Positions 8,636-18,152 of a DNA stretch of 64,000 nucleotides are shown here, piece after piece. Both the position numbers and the translations under genes were made by a program. The stretch's first letter is position 1; the number at the start of each line of letters is the position of its first letter. Location of the stretch: assembly GCF_003334335.1 (NCBI RefSeq), contig NZ_QOWQ01000013.1. The stretch is one strand, 5' to 3'. Source of the DNA: Escherichia coli (GTDB taxonomy: Bacteria; Pseudomonadota; Gammaproteobacteria; Enterobacterales; Enterobacteriaceae). The notes below the pieces were generated by a model, which searched no databases, was not told the DNA's origin, and worked only from the letters and a program-made list of their open reading frames with translations.

Positions 8636-8822
8636 AGTACATCCTTGCAGAATCAGGTAGATGTTTTTCGGCTACTATAACACTACCAAAATAGGCGAAC
8701 ACGTTAGAAATGAGTCAGTTGCTGTGACCGTGGTCATTGCCCGGAAAGGTACAGAAAGCTAAGATGAGATGTTATGGGCCTTAAATATTTGGACAGGCCC
8801 GCACAGCAATGGATTAATAACA

Positions 8823-11800
8823 ATGATGAATAAATCCAATTTTGAATTCCTGAAGGGCGTCAACGACTTCACTTATGCCATCGCCTGTGCGGCGGAAAAT
8901 AACTACCCGGATGATCCCAACACGACGCTGATTAAAATGCGTATGTTTGGCGAAGCCACAGCGAAACATCTTGGTCTGTTACTCAACATCCCCCCTTGTG
9001 AGAATCAACACGATCTCCTGCGCGAACTCGGCAAAATCGCCTTCGTTGATGACAACATCCTCTCTGTATTCCACAAATTACGCCGCATTGGTAACCAGGC
9101 GGTGCACGAATATCATAACGATCTCGACGATGCCCAGATGTGTCTGCGGCTCGGGTTCCGCCTGGCTGTCTGGTACTACCGTCTGGTCACCAAAGATTAT
9201 GACTTCCCGGTGCCGGTGTTTGTGTTGCCGGAACGTGGCAAAAACCTCTATTACCAGGAAGTGCTGACGCTAAAACAACAGCTTGAACAGCAGGCGCGAG
9301 AAAAAGCGCAGACTCAGGCAGAAGTCGAAGCGCAACAGCAGAAGCTGGTTGCCCTGAACGGCTATATCGCCATTCTGGAAGGCAAACAGCAGGAAACAGA
9401 AGCGCAAACCCAGGCTCGCCTTGCGGCGCTGGAAGCACAGCTTGCCGAGAAGAACGCGGAACTGGCAAAACAGACCGAACAGGAACGTAAGGCTTACCAC
9501 AAAGAAATTACCGATCAGGCCATCAAGCGCACACTCAACCTTAGCGAAGAAGAGAGTCGCTTCCTGATTGACGCGCAACTGCGTAAAGCAGGCTGGCAGG
9601 CCGATAGCAAAACCCTGCGCTTCTCCAAAGGCGCGCGCCCGGAACCCGGCGTCAATAAAGCCATTGCCGAATGGCCGACCGGGAAAGATGAAACGGGTAA
9701 TCAGGGCTTTGCGGATTATGTGCTGTTTGTCGGCCTCAAGCCCATCGCGGTGGTAGAGGCGAAACGTAAAAATATCGACGTTCCCGGCAAGCTCAATGAG
9801 TCGTATCGCTACAGCAAATGCTTCGATAATGGCTTCCTGCGGGAAACCTTGCTTGAGCATTACTCGCCGGATGAAGTGCATGAAGCGGTGCCGGAGTATG
9901 AAACCAGCTGGCAGGACACCAGCGGCCAACAACGGTTTAAAATCCCCTTCTGCTACTCGACCAACGGGCGCGAATACCGCGCAGCAATGAAAACTAAAAG
10001 CGGCATCTGGTATCGCGACGTGCGTGATACCCGTAATATGTCGAAAGCCTTACCCGAGTGGCATCGCCCGGAAGAGCTGCTGGAAATGCTCGGCAGTGAA
10101 CCGCAAAAACAGAATCAGTGGTTTGCCGATAACCCTGGCATGAGCGAGCTGGGCCTGCGTTATTATCAGGAAGATGCCGTCCGCGCGGTTGAAAAGGCAA
10201 TCGTCAAGGGTCAACAAGAGATCCTGCTGGCGATGGCGACCGGTACCGGTAAAACCCGTACGGCAATCGCCATGATGTTCCGCCTGATCCAGTCCCAGCG
10301 TTTTAAACGCATTCTCTTCCTTGTCGACCGCCGTTCTCTTGGCGAGCAGGCGCTGGGGGCGTTTGAAGATACGCGTATTAACGGCGACACTTTCAACAGC
10401 ATTTTCGACATTAAAGGGCTGACGGATAAATTCCCCGAAGACAGCACCAAAATTCACGTTGCCACCGTACAGTCGCTGGTGAAACGCACCCTGCAATCAG
10501 ATGAACCGATGCCGGTGGCCCGTTACGACTGTATCGTCGTCGATGAAGCGCATCGCGGCTATATTCTCGATAAAGAGCAGACCGAAGGCGAACTGCAGTT
10601 TCGCAGCCAGCTGGATTATGTCTCTGCCTACCGTCGCATTCTCGATCACTTCGATGCGGTAAAAATCGCCCTCACCGCCACCCCGGCGCTGCATACTGTG
10701 CAGATTTTCGGCGAGCCGGTTTACCGTTATACCTACCGTACCGCGGTTATCGACGGTTTTCTGATCGACCAGGATCCGCCTATTCAGATCATCACCCGCA
10801 ACGCGCAGGAGGGGGTTTATCTCTCCAAAGGCGAGCAGGTAGAGCGCATCAGCCCGCAGGGAGAAGTGATCAACGACACCCTGGAAGACGATCAGGATTT
10901 TGAGGTCGCCGACTTTAACCGTGGCCTGGTGATCCCGGCGTTTAACCGCGCCGTCTGTAACGAACTCACCAATTATCTTGACCCGACCGGGTCACAAAAA
11001 ACGCTGGTCTTCTGCGTCACTAATGCCCATGCCGATATGGTGGTGGAAGAGCTGCGTGCCGCGTTCAAGAAAAAGTATCCGCAACTGGAGCACGACGCGA
11101 TCATCAAGATCACCGGTGATGCCGATAAAGACGCGCGCAAAGTGCAGACCATGATCACCCGCTTCAATAAAGAGCGGTTGCCCAATATCGTGGTGACCGT
11201 CGACCTGCTGACGACCGGCGTCGATATTCCGTCGATCTGTAATATCGTGTTCCTGCGTAAAGTACGCAGCCGCATTCTGTACGAACAGATGAAAGGCCGC
11301 GCCACGCGCTTATGCCCGGAGGTGAATAAAACTAGCTTTAAGATTTTTGACTGTGTCGATATCTACAGCACGCTGGAGAGCGTCGACACCATGCGTCCGG
11401 TGGTGGTGCGCCCGAAGGTGGAACTGCAAACGCTGGTCAACGAAATTACCGATTCAGAAACCTATAAAATCACCGAAGCGGATGGCCGCAGTTTTGCCGA
11501 GCACAGCCATGAACAACTGGTGGCGAAGCTCCAGCGCATCATCGGCCTGGCCACGTTTAACCGTGACCGCAGCGAAACGATAGATAAACAGGTGCGTCGT
11601 CTGGATGAGCTATGCCAGGACGCGGCGGGGGTGAACTTTAACGGCTTCGCCTCGCGTCTGCGGGAAAAAGGACCGCACTGGAGCGCCGAAGTCTTTAACA
11701 AACTGCCTGGCTTTATCGCCCGTCTGGAAAAGCTGAAAACCGATATCAACAATCTGAATGATGCGCCGATCTTCCTCGATATCGACGATGAAGTGGTGAG

Positions 11801-12335
11801 TGTAAAATCGCTGTACGGTGATTACGACACACCGCAGGATTTCCTCGAAGCCTTTGACTCGCTGGTGCAACGTTCCCCGAACGCGCAACCGGCATTGCAG
11901 GCGGTGATCAATCGCCCGCGCGATCTCACCCGTAAAGGGCTGGTCGAGCTACAGGAGTGGTTTGACCGCCAGCACTTTGAGGAATCTTCCCTGCGCAAAG
12001 CATGGAAAGAGACGCGCAATGAAGATATCGCCGCCCGGCTGATTGGTCATATTCGCCGCGCTGCGGTGGGCGATGCGCTGAAACCGTTTGAGGAACGTGT
12101 CGATCACGCGCTGACGCGTATCAAGGGCGAAAACGACTGGAGCAGCGAGCAATTAAGCTGGCTCGATCGTTTAGCGCAGGCGCTGAAAGAGAAAGTGGTG
12201 CTCGACGACGATGTCTTCAAAACCGGCAACTTCCACCGTCGCGGCGGGAAGGCGATGCTGCAAAGAACCTTTGACGATAATCTCGATACCCTGCTGGGCA
12301 AATTCAGCGATTACATCTGGGACGAGCTCGCCTGA
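8823..12335 (+). CDS. hsdR: Type I restriction enzyme R subunit HsdR (EcoKI family, IA)
   Basis: ORF 8769..12335; recalled EcoKI N-terminus MMNKSNFEFLKG gives start 8823 (1170 aa); helicase motifs GTGKT and DEAH visible. Confidence 0.95.
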   Translation: MMNKSNFEFLKGVNDFTYAIACAAENNYPDDPNTTLIKMRMFGEATAKHLGLLLNIPPCENQHDLLRELGKIAFVDDNILSVFHKLRRIGNQAVHEYHNDLDDAQMCLRLGFRLAVWYYRLVTKDYDFPVPVFVLPERGKNLYYQEVLTLKQQLEQQAREKAQTQAEVEAQQQKLVALNGYIAILEGKQQETEAQTQARLAALEAQLAEKNAELAKQTEQERKAYHKEITDQAIKRTLNLSEEESRFLIDAQLRKAGWQADSKTLRFSKGARPEPGVNKAIAEWPTGKDETGNQGFADYVLFVGLKPIAVVEAKRKNIDVPGKLNESYRYSKCFDNGFLRETLLEHYSPDEVHEAVPEYETSWQDTSGQQRFKIPFCYSTNGREYRAAMKTKSGIWYRDVRDTRNMSKALPEWHRPEELLEMLGSEPQKQNQWFADNPGMSELGLRYYQEDAVRAVEKAIVKGQQEILLAMATGTGKTRTAIAMMFRLIQSQRFKRILFLVDRRSLGEQALGAFEDTRINGDTFNSIFDIKGLTDKFPEDSTKIHVATVQSLVKRTLQSDEPMPVARYDCIVVDEAHRGYILDKEQTEGELQFRSQLDYVSAYRRILDHFDAVKIALTATPALHTVQIFGEPVYRYTYRTAVIDGFLIDQDPPIQIITRNAQEGVYLSKGEQVERISPQGEVINDTLEDDQDFEVADFNRGLVIPAFNRAVCNELTNYLDPTGSQKTLVFCVTNAHADMVVEELRAAFKKKYPQLEHDAIIKITGDADKDARKVQTMITRFNKERLPNIVVTVDLLTTGVDIPSICNIVFLRKVRSRILYEQMKGRATRLCPEVNKTSFKIFDCVDIYSTLESVDTMRPVVVRPKVELQTLVNEITDSETYKITEADGRSFAEHSHEQLVAKLQRIIGLATFNRDRSETIDKQVRRLDELCQDAAGVNFNGFASRLREKGPHWSAEVFNKLPGFIARLEKLKTDINNLNDAPIFLDIDDEVVSVKSLYGDYDTPQDFLEAFDSLVQRSPNAQPALQAVINRPRDLTRKGLVELQEWFDRQHFEESSLRKAWKETRNEDIAARLIGHIRRAAVGDALKPFEERVDHALTRIKGENDWSSEQLSWLDRLAQALKEKVVLDDDVFKTGNFHRRGGKAMLQRTFDDNLDTLLGKFSDYIWDELA

Positions 12336-12411: not shown

Positions 12412-14001
12412 ATGAACAATAACGATCTGGTCGCGAAGCTGTGGAAGCTGTGCGACAACCTGCGCGATGGCGGCGTTTCCTATCAAAACTATGTCAATGA
12501 ACTCGCCTCGCTGCTGTTTTTGAAAATGTGTAAAGAGACCGGGCAGGAAGCGGAATACCTGCCGGAAGGCTACCGCTGGGATGACCTGAAATCCCGCATC
12601 GGCCAGGAGCAGTTGCAGTTCTACCGTAACCTGCTGGTACATCTGGGCGCCGACAATCAAAAGCTGGTGCAGGCGGTGTTCCAGAACGTCAACACCACCA
12701 TTACCCAGCCAAAACAGTTGACCGAACTGGTCAGCAATATGGATTCACTGGACTGGTACAACGGTGCGCACGGTAAGTCGCGCGATGACTTCGGCGATAT
12801 GTACGAAGGGTTGTTGCAGAAGAACGCGAACGAAACCAAGTCTGGCGCGGGCCAGTACTTCACCCCGCGTCCGCTGATTAAAACCATTATTCATCTGCTG
12901 AAACCGCAGCCGCGTGAAGTAGTGCAGGACCCGGCAGCAGGTACAGCGGGCTTTTTGATTGAAGCCGACCGCTACGTTAAGTCGCAAACCAATGATCTGG
13001 ACGACCTTGATGGCGACACGCAGGATTTCCAGATCCACCGCGCGTTTATCGGCCTCGAACTGGTGCCTGGCACCCGTCGTCTGGCGCTGATGAACTGCCT
13101 GCTGCACGATATTGAAGGCAACCTCGACCACGGCGGCGCAATCCGTCTGGGCAACACCCTGGGTAGCGATGGTGAAAACCTGCCAAAGGCGCATATTGTC
13201 GCCACTAACCCGCCGTTTGGCAGCGCCGCAGGCACCAACATTACCCGCACCTTTGTCCACCCGACCAGCAACAAACAGTTGTGCTTTATGCAGCATATTA
13301 TCGAAACGCTGCATCCCGGCGGTCGTGCGGCGGTGGTGGTGCCGGATAACGTGCTGTTTGAAGGCGGCAAAGGCACCGACATCCGTCGTGACCTGATGGA
13401 TAAGTGTCATCTGCACACCATTCTGCGTCTGCCGACCGGTATTTTTTACGCGCAGGGCGTGAAAACCAACGTGCTGTTCTTTACCAAAGGGACGGTGGCA
13501 AATCCGCATCAGGATAAGAACTGTACTGATGACGTGTGGGTGTATGACCTGCGGACCAATATGCCGAGCTTCGGCAAGCGCACGCCGTTTACCGACGAGC
13601 ATTTGCAGCCGTTTGAGCGCGTATATGGCGAAAACCCGCACGGCTTAAGCCCGCGCACGGAAGGGGAATGGAGTTTTAACGCCGAAGAGACGGAAGTTGC
13701 CGACAGCGAAGAGAACAAAAATACCGATCAGCATCTGGCTACCAGCCGCTGGCGCAAGTTCAGCCGCGAGTGGATCCGCACCGCGAAATCCGATTCGCTG
13801 GATATCTCCTGGTTAAAAGATAAAGACAGTATTGATGCTGACAGCCTGCCGGAGCCGGATGTATTAACGGCAGAAGCGATGGGCGAGCTGGTACAGGCAT
13901 TGGGTGAACTGGATGCGCTGATGCGTGAACTGGGGGCGAGCGATGAGGCGGATGCGCAGCGTCAATTGCTGGAAGAAGCGTTTGGTGGGGTGAAGGAATG
14001 A
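12412..14001 (+). CDS. hsdM: Type I RM N6-adenine DNA methyltransferase subunit HsdM
   Basis: 529-aa ORF; NPPF catalytic motif (ATNPPFGSAAG) and AdoMet-binding region; 4-nt ATGA overlap with hsdS. Confidence 0.95.
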   Translation: MNNNDLVAKLWKLCDNLRDGGVSYQNYVNELASLLFLKMCKETGQEAEYLPEGYRWDDLKSRIGQEQLQFYRNLLVHLGADNQKLVQAVFQNVNTTITQPKQLTELVSNMDSLDWYNGAHGKSRDDFGDMYEGLLQKNANETKSGAGQYFTPRPLIKTIIHLLKPQPREVVQDPAAGTAGFLIEADRYVKSQTNDLDDLDGDTQDFQIHRAFIGLELVPGTRRLALMNCLLHDIEGNLDHGGAIRLGNTLGSDGENLPKAHIVATNPPFGSAAGTNITRTFVHPTSNKQLCFMQHIIETLHPGGRAAVVVPDNVLFEGGKGTDIRRDLMDKCHLHTILRLPTGIFYAQGVKTNVLFFTKGTVANPHQDKNCTDDVWVYDLRTNMPSFGKRTPFTDEHLQPFERVYGENPHGLSPRTEGEWSFNAEETEVADSEENKNTDQHLATSRWRKFSREWIRTAKSDSLDISWLKDKDSIDADSLPEPDVLTAEAMGELVQALGELDALMRELGASDEADAQRQLLEEAFGGVKE

Positions 14002-15347
14002 GTGCGGGGAAATTGCCGGAGGGGTGGGTTGAAACCTACCTTTCTGAAATATGTAGTAAACCACAATATGGTTATACAACTAAGTCGAGCTTTACAGGTA
14101 ATGTAAAATTTTTAAGAACTACAGATATTACTAAAGGTACTGTGGATTGGTCCACTGTACCTTATTGTTTGCAAAATCCTGATGATATACTTAAATATCA
14201 GCTTCAAGATCGAGATATTGTTATATCCCGGGCTGGTTCCGTAGGTTTTAGTTTTTTAGTAAAAAACCCACCGAATAATGCTGTCTTTGCTTCGTACCTG
14301 ATCAGATTCAAACCTTTTGATAATATTTCAGAGCTTTACTTGAAGCGTTTTTTAGAGTCCGGCAACTATTGGGTTCAGCTTGCCTCTATGTCGGCTGGAA
14401 ATGCATTACAAAATGTAAATGCTCAAAAATTATCCACGCTTATAGTACCAATTCCTCCACTTGCCGAACAAAAAATCATCGCTGAAAAACTCGATACGCT
14501 GCTGGCGCAGGTAGAGAGCACCAAAGCACGTCTTGAGCAAATCCCACAAATCCTGAAACGTTTTCGTCAGGCGGTGCTATCTAGTGCTGTTAGCGGTAAG
14601 TTAATTGACAAAAGCTTCGAAAATAAATTAGAAAAGCTCAATTCGTTTGTATCTATAGATATTGGTAATGCGTTCAAAAGCTCAGAGTTTAGTGATGAAG
14701 GCGTTCCATTACTCCGAGGACAAAATATAGAACCCGGAGCATTACGTTGGGATGACACAAAAAAATTCCCAATAGATAAACTTCAAAAATATTCTCATTT
14801 ATTTATTAATGAGGGCGATATTATATTAGCAATGGATCGCCCAATAATATCAAGCGGGTTAAAAATAGCTAAAGCCAAAAAAAGTGATCTTCCTTGCGTT
14901 CTGGTTCAACGAGTTGCCAGATTTAAAGATTTCGAAAATCTAATTCCTGACTATCTGTATTTGTTATTGAATGATGTGTCTTTTATTAATTATATTCAAC
15001 CAAATCAGACTGGTAGCGACATTCCGCATATCAGTGGAAAACAAATTTTAAACTTTGAGTGTAATGTCCCCTCTATCCCCGAACAACGCGAAATCGTTCG
15101 CCGCGTCGAGCAACTCTTCGCCTACGCCGACACTATAGAAAAACAGGTTAACAACGCCTTAGCCCGCGTCAACAACCTGACGCAATCCATCCTGGCAAAA
15201 GCGTTCCGTGGTGAGCTCACCGCCCAGTGGCGGGCCGAAAACCCGGAATTAATCAGCGGAGAAAACAGCGCCGCCGCGTTGCTGGAGAAAATCAAAGCTG
15301 AATGCGCAGCCAGCGGGGGTAAAAAAGCCTCGAGTAAAAAATCCTGA
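13998..15347 (+). CDS. hsdS: Type I RM specificity subunit HsdS (family IA conserved regions, distinct target-recognition domains)
   Basis: 449-aa ORF; N-terminus MSAGKLPEGW as in the EcoKI family; two AT-rich variable TRDs (about 14040-14460 and 14570-15070) separated by conserved LAEQKIIAEKLD...; conserved C-terminal IPEQREIV... Confidence 0.9.
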   Translation: MSAGKLPEGWVETYLSEICSKPQYGYTTKSSFTGNVKFLRTTDITKGTVDWSTVPYCLQNPDDILKYQLQDRDIVISRAGSVGFSFLVKNPPNNAVFASYLIRFKPFDNISELYLKRFLESGNYWVQLASMSAGNALQNVNAQKLSTLIVPIPPLAEQKIIAEKLDTLLAQVESTKARLEQIPQILKRFRQAVLSSAVSGKLIDKSFENKLEKLNSFVSIDIGNAFKSSEFSDEGVPLLRGQNIEPGALRWDDTKKFPIDKLQKYSHLFINEGDIILAMDRPIISSGLKIAKAKKSDLPCVLVQRVARFKDFENLIPDYLYLLLNDVSFINYIQPNQTGSDIPHISGKQILNFECNVPSIPEQREIVRRVEQLFAYADTIEKQVNNALARVNNLTQSILAKAFRGELTAQWRAENPELISGENSAAALLEKIKAECAASGGKKASSKKS

Positions 15348-15497: not shown

Positions 15498-15539
15498 GTA
15501 TTTAGCGCGGTGCGGATGTGCGCCAACACACCCGCACCG

Positions 15540-15620
15540 CTAATCACAATCACTATTTATAGGGAATAGCAGTTATGACTGACACGCATTCTATTGCACA
15601 ACCGTTCGAAGCAGAAGTCT
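15540..15620 (-). ncRNA. symR: SymR antisense sRNA (type I antitoxin) overlapping the symE 5' end; coordinates approximate
   Basis: Inferred from the known symE/symR arrangement; exact ends cannot be set from sequence alone. Confidence 0.3.
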
Positions 15621-15916
15621 CCCCGGCAAATAACCGTCAATTAACCGTGAGTTATGCGAGTCGCTACCCGGATTACAGCCGTATTCCCGCCATCACCCTG
15701 AAAGGTCAGTGGCTGGAAACCGCCGGTTTTGCTACCGGCACGGCGGTAGATGTCAAAGTGATGGAAGGCTGTATTGTCCTCACCGCCCAACCACCTGCCG
15801 CCGAAGAGAGCGAACTGATGCAGTCACTGCGCCAGGTGTGCAAACTGTCGGCGCGTAAACAAAAGCAGGTGCAGGAATTTATTGAGGTGATTGCCGGTAA
15901 ACGAAAAGTCGCCTGA
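15575..15916 (+). CDS. symE: SymE SOS-induced toxin-like protein (AbrB/MazE fold, RNA cleavage)
   Basis: 113-aa [37 protein letters not shown]... recognised as SymE. Confidence 0.9.
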
Positions 15917-15924
15917 TACATTGA

Positions 15925-15948
15925 CCCGGTAGCGCCAGTGCTACCGGG
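15925..15948. terminator. Hairpin between convergent symE and the DUF262/DUF1524 gene (probable bidirectional terminator)
   Basis: cccggtag cgccagtg ctaccggg stem-loop with T-rich tract on the plus side. Confidence 0.5.
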
Positions 15949-15962
15949 TATTATTCGCCACG

Positions 15963-18056
15963 TTATACCAACGCGCTCTCCATCTGTTTTTCAAATGCCT
16001 GACGGATTAATCCCATAATGTAAGGAAGTTGTGCGAGGTCGCTGAAACCAATTTCTACATCGCCATTGCCCCAGCGCCCAACATTTGTCACATCTTTGGC
16101 AATACCTTTCGGATCGACCAGTTCATGAAACTGCATATTAAGCGACAATCGCAGTCGGCTTTTTTGCGGCACAACATCAACAAAGTTCGTTTCCGCTTTA
16201 AACGCAATATAGAGCTTCAATACTTCCTGCGTGATCCCTGCGTCCAGGCGCATAACTTCATCGCGAAGATGATCGAATAACTCCCGACTATGCGAACCAT
16301 CAGCAAGAAAAGGAAAATCATTCAGGCTGTAATTGGTTTTGTTTTCAGGCTTCCCCCGATAAACAGCTAAAACCTCTTCAGGAAGAGCAGGCGCTTGCCA
16401 GACCTGAATTGCAAGCTCTGCCAGACGATCGGCTCGGGCGTGAATGGCGGCTTCATCCCATTTTTCGCACTGTCCAAGACCGATATTCAAATAGAGCGGG
16501 CTATGTTTAAAGCCGTCTTCAATATCGCGTTTTTCCGCGAAAGGTCTGTCACTGTAGCGGGAGTTATAGCGCGTTAATGTGAGATTCCCCAACGTATGCA
16601 ACAGTTCTTTATGAATGCGTTGCCAGTCACTTCCCAGCTCTTCACGCCATTTAGCCGACAAATTTTCGTTCTGCGGCATAATATGTTCAATCGTAAACTC
16701 TTCCACGCGCTCTCTGCGTTTATCGTTTTCCAGTCGTCGTAACCAGTAACTGCGACTGCGGAAGTTATAGAGATCGCGAACTTTTAATTCCCGTTTAAAT
16801 TCATCATCGTTGGGGAAACGACGATATGAAGGTAGATTCAGAAAATGTACCTGAATACTTTCCAGATAATTTTCTTTATTAATGACCTTATAAAAAGTAG
16901 CAAACGTCTTGTTAAGAGAATTTGTCGGAATCGCACATACTGCACGGCGGAAAACATAAGATTCAATTAAACGAATTATGTTCAGGAAATCTTCTTGAGA
17001 CAAAACGCCATTTTTATAGTCATGATAAAGCGCCAGTAAGAAAGGATACGCCACATCGACCTTTAACTCGCGCAAATCCTGAAAAGCCGTAGCAAGCGAT
17101 TTGTCACTTTCTTTTCCCAATGCCATTGCACAGTAATACTCCGCGTAGATGTGAATATCTTCAACCAGCCGATCTACGCCTTTTTCAGCAACACTCTGGC
17201 TGCGGGCATGGAGTTTAAATGCCTCATAGACTTCATCTGTCCGAGGGATCTCCCCTGTTTTTACCGTCAGATAATGACGCATAAAACTGTCAAAATATTC
17301 GCTGTAACCTTGCTGACCAAACGCGACTTCCATTGGACGCCAGTGATCTTCATACAACCGGGTTTGATGCTCTGGTTCGAGGCCCATCAGAATAAAATTG
17401 CGCACCAGATCGGCCTGACTTAACGCCTTACCGGTGGAGTTCATACTTTCAAAAATCAGTTGCGGATTATCCTGACCACGATTAAGCGCCACATCGACAA
17501 TTAATAATTTTGCTAACCCACGACATAAGGGAATCAAATCATCCCCGAGTTTGGCAATTTGTTCATCAAAGAAAGTAAAGTTTTCCATTATTCGATGGGA
17601 ATAGTTTTCTGGCATTGGTCTTTGTTTTATTAACGCCAGCAAACTGTCTTTATCAGTCTCGGTCAGCAGTAATTTAAATCCTTTCTCGCCGGACTCATAA
17701 GGATTGAGTAAATAATAATTACGCAATTTCATTGCTGAAAAGCCATCAAAAACTTCGTCTTCGCCAAGATGACGCGATAAAGCCTCAATCAGCAACATTG
17801 CGGTCGTCAGCCTTTGTTGACCATCAATGACCAGTAACGGAGAAATACCAGAAACCTGATACAACCCCTGCTCAATATAAACAACCGAACCGATAAAATG
17901 CGCTGATATATCGTCACGCTTTCCGGCACGAATGATGTCGTCCCAAAGTTGCCGACATTGTTGTTCTGTCCATGAATAAGTCCGTTGATAAATGGGAATA
18001 ACAAACTGCTGCGAACGTTTTAAAAAATCGAGTAGGCGGGCTTCTGTAGCTTTCAT
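15963..18056 (-). CDS. DUF262 (ParB-like NTPase) + DUF1524 (HNH/His-Me finger) fusion protein; GmrSD-like putative Type IV modification-dependent restriction endonuclease
   Basis: 697-aa ORF; N-terminal DGQQR motif (LVIDGQQRLTT) typical of DUF262; C-terminal region with EHIMPQN...LGNLTL His-Me finger-like motif typical of DUF1524; extra about 140-aa C-terminal extension; sits where mcrBC lies in K-12. Confidence 0.75.
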   Translation of the reverse strand: MKATEARLLDFLKRSQQFVIPIYQRTYSWTEQQCRQLWDDIIRAGKRDDISAHFIGSVVYIEQGLYQVSGISPLLVIDGQQRLTTAMLLIEALSRHLGEDEVFDGFSAMKLRNYYLLNPYESGEKGFKLLLTETDKDSLLALIKQRPMPENYSHRIMENFTFFDEQIAKLGDDLIPLCRGLAKLLIVDVALNRGQDNPQLIFESMNSTGKALSQADLVRNFILMGLEPEHQTRLYEDHWRPMEVAFGQQGYSEYFDSFMRHYLTVKTGEIPRTDEVYEAFKLHARSQSVAEKGVDRLVEDIHIYAEYYCAMALGKESDKSLATAFQDLRELKVDVAYPFLLALYHDYKNGVLSQEDFLNIIRLIESYVFRRAVCAIPTNSLNKTFATFYKVINKENYLESIQVHFLNLPSYRRFPNDDEFKRELKVRDLYNFRSRSYWLRRLENDKRRERVEEFTIEHIMPQNENLSAKWREELGSDWQRIHKELLHTLGNLTLTRYNSRYSDRPFAEKRDIEDGFKHSPLYLNIGLGQCEKWDEAAIHARADRLAELAIQVWQAPALPEEVLAVYRGKPENKTNYSLNDFPFLADGSHSRELFDHLRDEVMRLDAGITQEVLKLYIAFKAETNFVDVVPQKSRLRLSLNMQFHELVDPKGIAKDVTNVGRWGNGDVEIGFSDLAQLPYIMGLIRQAFEKQMESALV

Positions 18057-18152
18057 TCTGACGTCTTTCCGTGAAGCGATGATTTCGCAATAATAACCAC
18101 TTCCTTGTGGAGGTTATAGAGAAATCCTGTTTATCCGCGACGAACTGCCCCC

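Follow-up and report, generated by a model that had tools for sequence, protein, structure and literature searches.

GmrSD-family genes have been described repeatedly within the Immigration Control Region (ICR), the best-known defence hotspot of Escherichia coli (PMC12707154). He et al. (2015) reported gmrSD genes in this region, namely APECO1_2080, c5421, and UTI89_C5048, and the 733-amino-acid (aa) product of APECO1_2080 was 24% identical to Eco94GmrSD (PMC4437046, Fig. 8). According to an EcoSal Plus review of 2025, a GmrSD homolog stands in place of McrBC in some E. coli ICRs, and GmrSD and McrBC are found in 12 and 6% of ICRs, respectively (PMC12707154). A 2025 survey in Nat Commun clustered enterobacterial GmrSD proteins; the largest cluster, CLS_001, contains the protein AGB79837, representatives of 15 systems (CLS_001 included) were synthesised, five additional ones were active, and the members tested are described as having “virtually no similarity” outside the DGQQR motif (PMC12373910). 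HEC-06 is a validated GmrSD-like single-gene defence, whose QR and EH mutants are inactive (bioRxiv 10.1101/2024.01.29.577857, Payne et al. 2024). The association of GmrSD-like genes with Type I restriction-modification (R-M) systems is also already known (Machnicka 2015, Table 1; RloF, PMC4619093), and TgvAB, which sits in a Type I operon of Vibrio cholerae, needs no HsdR for its restriction of phages whose cytosines are hypermodified (PMC11411939). Here we describe a gene of this family on the minus strand (15963..18056) of a 64,000-nucleotide (nt) stretch of E. coli DNA (contig NZ_QOWQ01000013.1), hereafter called the window.

The window gene is the same gene, in the same slot, as APECO1_2080, c5421, and UTI89_C5048, which are flanked by genes for an Rpn “transposase”, SymE, hsdS/M/R, Mrr, and YjiA; the 733 aa of APECO1_2080 correspond to the 697 aa of the window protein plus 36 upstream codons, as annotated in strain H22. 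AGB79837 (P0032) was 74% identical to the window protein and had the same three domains, and through this shared member the window family corresponds to CLS_001 (PMC12373910). Both the locus and the family membership were already known. In the parts of PMC4437046 and PMC12373910 that were available, the C-terminal DUF5655 tail of the protein is not named, and no substrate is given for the clade. The present analysis adds the fold of this tail, the conservation of the clade across phyla and into archaea, counts of its association with Type I genes, and the splitting of intact copies in RefSeq, while the identity of the locus remains as previously described.

We consider it highly probable that the gene encodes an autonomous single-chain Type IV (modification-dependent) nuclease of the GmrSD family, carried by a small, horizontally acquired ICR cassette that replaced mcrBC. 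The open reading frame (ORF) comprises 697 codons with an ATG start, and in-frame stop codons lie upstream of it, so 697 aa is the whole product; the exact protein is recorded in E. coli (EHW5729125.1, P0241). A preliminary description, made from the letters alone, had recognised one 697-aa minus-strand gene between symE and yjiS, with a DGQQR motif in an N-terminal DUF262 domain, an EHIMPQN...GNLTL motif of DUF1524 in the C-terminal part, and an extra C-terminal domain of about 140 aa. All four elements were recovered at the positions below, and Pfam, the profile search on whose outcome that description had staked its reading, detected both DUF262 and DUF1524 and named the extra domain DUF5655. 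The features of the gene are as follows.

15963..18056, minus strand: GmrSD-family coding sequence, a single chain with a DUF5655 tail (complete, 697 aa; ORF listing)
17391..18032, minus strand: GmrSD_N / DUF262 (ParB-like NTPase) domain, residues 9-222 (Pfam PF03235, E 9.4e-35)
17970-17996, minus strand: QR motif PIYQRTYSW (Y23-Q24-R25), located by translation
17811-17825, minus strand: DGQQR motif, residues 78-82, located by translation
17439-17453, minus strand: FxxxN motif FESMN (F202xxxN206), located by translation
16728..17375, minus strand: all-helical linker from NTPase to nuclease, residues ~228-443 (AlphaFold2 (AF2) secondary structure; predicted local distance difference test score (pLDDT) mostly 80-96)
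16416..16814, minus strand: GmrSD_C / DUF1524 His-Me finger nuclease domain, residues 415-547 (Pfam PF07510, E 1.5e-26)
16668-16688, minus strand: EHIMPQN, residues 457-463 (E457-H458), located by translation
16575-16589, minus strand: GNLTL, residues 490-494 (holds N491), located by translation
15987..16292, minus strand: DUF5655 domain, residues 589-690 (Pfam PF18899, E 4.4e-14)
16059-16079, minus strand: conserved GRWGNGD loop of DUF5655

In an alignment of 31 family members, D78-R82, F202, E203, N206, and N491-L494 were invariant, and Q24, R25, E457, H458, and N498 were at least 90% conserved. Pfam, translation, and alignment together identified the GmrSD_N half as a DUF262 domain with its QR, DGQQR, and FxxxN motifs, and the (D/E)H...N...N signature of GmrSD_C was represented by E457-H458, N491, and N498. 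The alpha-helical linker of 200-400 residues that joins the two halves within one chain corresponded to the helices at 228-443 in the AF2 model. With the domains, motifs, and helical linker all in place, all defining sequence features of GmrSD are present.

Profile and structure searches were consistent with this assignment. The PADLOC Orf5 model PDLC02693 aligned end-to-end over residues ~10-553 (E 5e-223), and positions 12-560 of the 562 positions in the PADLOC HEC-06 profile aligned to residues 8-555 (E 1.7e-67), HEC-06 being the nearest experimentally tested relative by profile. The PADLOC PDC-S18 model matched the tail alone. A sequence search of the PDB with phmmer retrieved DndI (9jfl, E 2e-12) and SspE (E 3e-6) with the DGQQR and EH motifs aligned, the EH pair of DUF1524 falling on the HNH motif of both; BrxU was undetected by this search. 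The full-length AF2 model, built on the alignment of 31 family members (mean pLDDT 87.6), consisted of a mixed alpha/beta N-terminal domain, the all-helical linker, a beta-beta-alpha nuclease core (454-458, 492-496, and 506-511), and a separate C-terminal domain. In the Foldseek search of the PDB, the best solved-structure matches of this model were DndI (2.7e-16; template modelling score 0.50/0.57), SspE (3e-14), and BrxU (1.7e-5). The Pfam domains, the PADLOC models, and these structural matches uphold the earlier reading of the protein as a GmrSD-like putative Type IV nuclease.

The genes around the locus are arranged in the order yjiA, mrr, hsdR, hsdM, hsdS, symE, the GmrSD gene, yjiS, yjiR, an rpn gene, mdtM, and yjiN, and the region is the E. 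coli ICR. Comparison with K-12 by blastn delimited the cassette and its anchors as follows.

15913..18147, unstranded: cassette-specific segment, 2,235 bp, 43.8% GC (blastn of the window against K-12; composition)
15575..15916, plus strand: symE, left cassette anchor (ORF listing, blastn)
18153..18332, minus strand: yjiS, right cassette anchor, co-oriented with the GmrSD gene, from which it is separated by 96 bp on the upstream side
15924..15949, unstranded: inverted repeat with perfectly matched 10-bp arms around a 6-nt loop, in the gap that separates the stops of symE and the GmrSD gene

K-12 homology stopped at 15912, 4 bp short of the symE end, and restarted at 18148, 5 bp beyond the yjiS stop. 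The K-12 counterpart measures 7,582 bp and contains mcrB, mcrC, yjiV', and yjiT; given these homology breaks, the 2,235 bp of the cassette stand in for it, and the placement of the gene in the mcrBC slot, proposed in the preliminary description, is confirmed by alignment. The same holds for its base composition, described as richer in AT than that of the flanking core genes: the GC content was 43.6% overall and 41% at third codon positions (GC3) in the GmrSD gene vs 52-56% and ~64%, respectively, in symE, yjiS, yjiR, hsdR, and hsdM.

The bidirectional hairpin terminator that was said to bound the gene stood only in part. The hairpin at 15924-15949 lies in the 46-bp gap that separates the convergent stops of symE and the GmrSD gene and folds on either strand (-20.2 and -19.6 kcal/mol, z -3.4 and -2.8, respectively), but it bounds the 3' end of the gene only. 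Because no U-tract was present on either side of it and the terminator scan made no call there, the label “terminator” is not established; it is possibly a transcript-end hairpin, non-canonical as an intrinsic terminator. The promoter and terminator scan of the flanks yielded nothing beyond shuffled expectation.

The tail was modelled separately over residues 556-697 with 54 diverse homologs (pLDDT 94.4). The model comprised a helix, four or five strands, and a long helix, and it confidently predicts an alpha-beta-alpha YdhG/YjbR-like (“double-wing”, CyaY-like) fold. The Pfam PF18899 match and the predicted alpha-beta-alpha sandwich agree in assigning the tail to DUF5655, and Foldseek with the full-length model also found YjbR and YdhG locally. 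The sequence identity of the tail to the double-wing domains of YdhG/DUF1801, YjbR/DUF419, and the T4 MotA C-terminus was just 3-15%, and a sequence search of the PDB with the 54-sequence DUF5655 profile gave no meaningful match to any chain. Unlike a typical DNA-binding surface, the tail was acidic overall (net charge -3), and its top conserved residues were D627, D648, D655, N624, N640, and Q686, plus K614, K620, and the GRWGNGD loop. Its role could be recognition, regulation, or partner binding.

A word search with the tail alone gave mostly fragments of the same family, and a representative library was used instead. The close relatives of DUF5655 were overwhelmingly GmrSD tails, and most odd-length matches, considered as possible partners other than GmrSD, turned out to be truncated GmrSD ORFs. 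The PADLOC defence candidate PDC-S18 likewise ends in a DUF5655 domain, while its N-terminal region gave only non-significant hints of a PD-(D/E)XK nuclease (HSDR_N_2, E 0.19; NucS_C, E 0.32). Two or three tandem copies of DUF5655 per protein were also observed (P0381, P0281, P0280, and P0343 are the proteins with tandem or PDC-S18 DUF5655). In the literature searched, a single paper refers to DUF5655, and only in passing.

Judged by BrxU, SspE, DndI, Eco94GmrSD, and HEC-06, the N-terminal DUF262 domain would bind and hydrolyse nucleoside triphosphate (NTP) through its QR, DGQQR, and FxxxN motifs and thereby gate the enzyme, and the helical linker would serve dimerisation and domain coupling. 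The DUF1524 His-Me finger (E457-H458, N491, and N498) would then nick or cut incoming DNA carrying a non-host modification, while the DUF5655 tail most likely adds a recognition or regulatory surface, to which DNA, a ligand, or another protein would bind. The restriction of modified-cytosine phages that the preliminary description envisaged is an extrapolation from other GmrSD clades. Several observations weigh against the Type IV reading. No NCBIfam model matched the 697-aa protein, and the scan found no sigma-70-like promoter site in the 96 bp upstream of the gene. The proposed functional role of the clade is drawn from likeness in sequence and structure, and the nearest structural relatives, DndI and SspE, are host-mark sensors rather than readers of phage modifications; what they sense is host phosphorothioate and not phage cytosine modification. 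Furthermore, a simple DNA-binding role of the tail is not obvious despite its predicted double-wing fold, given the charge of -3 and conserved residues that are mainly acidic or polar.

A search of 5,426 complete E. coli genomes detected DNA of the GmrSD gene in 1,404 (26%), near full length in 1,288, and the carriers include CFT073, O157:H7, O26:H11, and O104:H4. The best full-length DNA identity to the window allele was 97.9%, every complete RefSeq genome differing by at least 2.1%, and the CFT073 copy was 97.8% identical. Matches of at least 99% identity were considered as a closer allele and rejected, since each is a remnant of 109 codons next to IS1. The mrr slot beside yjiA, at the other end of the ICR, can hold other DUF262 genes; in CFT073 it encodes a 550-aa DUF262 protein (L001 725-2377). 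This slot is also the site of a second allele class of the three-domain family in E. coli (699 aa, 77% identical), which adjoins yjiA and diverges from a Type I system of another kind, whose HsdM has 781 aa (L011-L013 8001-10100).

Beyond E. coli, Citrobacter, Oceanimonas, Nitrincola, Halomonas, Salinivibrio, and Kiritimatiella have the three-domain protein of ~700 aa with an identity of 70-84%. Plasmids of Sulfitobacter, Nostoc, Planktothrix, Picosynechococcus, and Ruegeria encode it too, as does a single phage record from Anaerosphaera. A species scan with one genome per species gave at least 593 relatives, the best 80 of which represent 80 species, with 52-77% identity over the full length and phyla that include Planctomycetota, Actinomycetota, Chloroflexi, Bacillota, and Cyanobacteria. 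Full-length orthologs in methanogenic archaea ranged from 54 to 70% identity (L028, L038, L043, and L090); they come from Methanosaeta (70%), Methanosarcina and Methanococcoides (65%), all three among the best 80, and from Methanosarcinales. For a defence nuclease, such strong conservation after transfer between domains of life is unusual. The Methanosarcina ortholog sits between hsdS and hsdR. Set against the low similarity reported within the family, the conservation of this clade indicates wide recent horizontal transfer under tight constraint.

Six of the eight annotated contexts of relatives lay beside Type I R-M genes, one (L017) came straight after brxL, and one was beside Mks-like genes; dnd or ssp neighbours were found in none of these eight. 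In Kiritimatiella, the genes are arranged as hsdM-hsdS-gene-hsdR with 4-bp overlaps. The 80 species loci were also screened by phmmer with HsdR, HsdM, and HsdS queries, and 45 of them include 4 kb or more of sequence to either side. Of these 45 loci, 27 or more had Type I genes of at least two kinds within 10 kb, and 23 or more had a Type I gene within 300 bp. At 15 or more, the gene was part of a Type I operon and ran in the direction of the hsd genes, in the order hsdM-G-hsdS-hsdR or hsdM-hsdS-G-hsdR (G being the GmrSD gene) and often with overlapping stop and start codons. Given the small number of queries, all three counts are minimum values.

This proximity favours an alternative in which the protein, instead of acting autonomously as a Type IV enzyme, would serve the neighbouring Type I R-M system as a dependent accessory or back-up effector, with DUF5655 coupling the two or sensing. 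Host Type I N6-methyladenine (m6A) marks might spare self DNA, akin to phosphorothioate with SspE and DndI, or the effector might fire when the Type I complex is inhibited, akin to PrrC with EcoPrrI. The best structural matches being the host-mark sensors DndI and SspE, and not BrxU, points in the same direction, and 52-77% identity across phyla and archaea is easier to reconcile with a partner or mark that is conserved than with a target in an arms race. A few ORFs pair DUF5655 with HsdS, HsdM, or HsdR domains; these apparent fusions are weak evidence because of the truncated ORFs and because at least one proved to be an hsdR/GmrSD read-through chimera. The window gene itself, however, is convergent to hsdRMS, 616 bp from hsdS and with symE in between, and lies outside the hsd operon. 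The adjacent Type I systems also differ in family, being Type IA here and of 780-aa HsdM types elsewhere, and some relatives are without a Type I neighbour, beside Mks-like genes or bacteriophage exclusion (BREX) genes instead. Moreover, TgvAB works without HsdR (PMC11411939), and HEC-06 and BrxU act alone. On balance, we regard dependence on Type I R-M as unlikely. A related proposal, to which we give a similarly small chance, is that the DUF5655 clade forms a functionally distinct kind of GmrSD, the tail of which might read a conserved signal (a small molecule, host m6A, or how the Type I complex is faring) instead of a cytosine modification specific to phages, as a PrrC- or SspE-like second line coupled to Type I restriction; such distinctness is suggested by the embedding, the extreme conservation, and the DndI/SspE-like structure, and it is opposed by the convergent position of the window gene outside the operon and by the autonomy of TgvAB, HEC-06, and BrxU.

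RefSeq annotation favours a different alternative, in which the gene is a decaying or silent remnant without present function in the strain. In every sampled complete E. coli genome, the RefSeq prokaryotic annotation pipeline (PGAP) placed two features under the match: one, a “GmrSD ... domain-containing protein” of 387 aa, begins at M311, and the other is a pseudogene for the N-terminal part, labelled “DUF262 ... incomplete”. True lesions are known as well. A G5-to-G4 frameshift at gene nt 801-805 (codons 267-269) occurs in most O157:H7 genomes, a W239* stop was found in O104:H4 strain HUSEC2011, and some copies carry IS1 insertions; in a spread sample of 55 near-full-length matches, ~17 had the 1-bp deletion and 2 had IS1. 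A 109-codon 5' remnant with 99.4% identity to the window allele is present in, e.g., E. coli strain 129130 (L003 3288-4327). The lack of a sigma-70-like promoter in the upstream scan fits a silent gene, too.

On the other side, direct translation yielded uninterrupted ORFs of 697 codons in six of eight copies (CFT073, O157:H7 SS17, O26:H11, O6:H16 ETEC, H22, and ST2747), so the split annotation is an artefact for these six and a pseudogene reading of the intact copies is ruled out; the window copy is likewise uninterrupted. The ratio of nonsynonymous to synonymous substitution rates (dN/dS) between the window allele and six intact alleles was 0.06-0.11 overall and at most 0.32 in each of four gene parts, the tail included, and a ratio of about 0.1 indicates purifying selection on the gene. 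The full-length architecture is also kept in the 80 other species at the identities given above. Taken together, we consider a functionless remnant very unlikely. The window allele differed from other intact alleles by 12-20 aa changes, clustered at residues 350-396 and 547-601.

Regarding the lesions themselves, the 387-aa fragment proteins appear to be derived from the truly frameshifted O157:H7 allele. The G4 allele yields ORFs of 293 and 387 aa, while strain SS17 keeps G5 and an intact ORF; the lesion may be fixed, the assemblies may differ, or the tract may be switchable. In the strains with the 109-codon remnant, IS1 follows right after yjiA and has removed mrr, hsdRMS, and symE together with the greater part of the GmrSD gene.

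A non-defence role as a ParB-like/HNH protein in chromosome or plasmid maintenance or DNA repair, or as a “transport protein”, to which membership of DUF262 in the ParB superfamily and the Joint Genome Institute (JGI) label COG3586 “predicted transport protein” on the DUF5655 part might point, is scarcely credible in view of an AF2 model without transmembrane segments, contexts that are consistently R-M, BREX, or Mks islands, the end-to-end fit of PADLOC defence models, and the location of an AT-rich cassette in the best-known E. coli defence hotspot (PMC12707154).

Other features of the surrounding ICR are as follows.

8769-12335, plus strand: hsdR (ORF; homology to EcoKI)
12412-14001, plus strand: hsdM (ORF; homology to EcoKI)
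13998-15347, plus strand: hsdS (ORF)
15504-15580, minus strand: symR antitoxin RNA, antisense (Rfam RF01809, 94 bits)
20149-21105, minus strand: Rpn-family (rpnD-like) gene, an intact 318-codon ORF

The three hsd genes form a Type IA R-M system, and Type I neighbours of this kind recur beside most relatives of the GmrSD gene. The hsdR and hsdM genes were 94.6-98.2% identical to those of K-12 EcoKI. The AT-rich hsdS gene (40.7% GC) matched EcoKI hsdS at its ends and in a conserved 130-bp central block (14446-14575) only, so the specificity of this Type IA system appears to be another one, as yet uncharacterised. SymR overlaps the symE 5' end in the same arrangement as in K-12, and rpnD carries a pseudogene annotation in K-12, unlike the intact window copy.

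The GmrSD gene is a common defence gene, being present in 26% of complete E. coli genomes, compared with McrBC in 6% of ICRs (PMC12707154). Protein-based defence censuses would miss or under-count it because RefSeq splits intact copies into a 387-aa protein and a pseudogene. Knowledge of its target would matter for the choice of therapeutic phages, for work in which wild strains are transformed or used in cloning, and perhaps for tools in epigenetics, and the predicted fold of the tail can guide mutagenesis.

Among the described systems, BrxU (7p9k), Eco94GmrSD, and CT596 GmrSD are Type IV enzymes cutting DNA with 5-hydroxymethylcytosine (hmC), glucosylated hmC (glc-hmC), or 5-methylcytosine (5mC). 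They share with the window protein the family architecture, which in their case is an NTP-stimulated His-Me nuclease, and a location in defence islands. The relationship to these enzymes is very distant: BrxU was detected by Foldseek but not by sequence, and the identity to Eco94GmrSD given for APECO1_2080 is 24% (PMC4437046). BrxU is BREX-embedded and has an RLFDS nucleotide-binding motif, whereas no BREX genes lie near the window gene and a single relative (L017) follows brxL. Eco94GmrSD and CT596 GmrSD are prophage-borne and, like BrxU, are without an extra C-terminal domain.

The phosphorothioate-sensing nickases DndI (9jfl) and SspE (6jiv, 7drs) agree with the window protein in the order of their domains and in both motifs, DGQQR and His-Me, but the identity is just 16-17% and neither has a DUF5655 tail. 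Their linkage to sspABCD or dndBCDE was also not seen here: the neighbours are yjiA, mrr, hsdRMS, symE, yjiS, yjiR, rpn, and mdtM, and no dnd or ssp genes were found within ~10 kb of the gene.

Relatives of the window gene hold the same positions among hsdM, hsdS, and hsdR as RloF of Campylobacter and TgvAB of the V. cholerae island VPI-2. TgvAB consists of two proteins, and the window gene is adjacent and convergent to hsd rather than embedded. Finally, HEC-06 differs from the window protein in its length of ~560 aa, in being without the DUF5655 tail, and in its embedding in Hma systems instead of a position beside Type I R-M, but its profile aligns over nearly the whole length, and both proteins share the DGQQR and EHxxP motifs.

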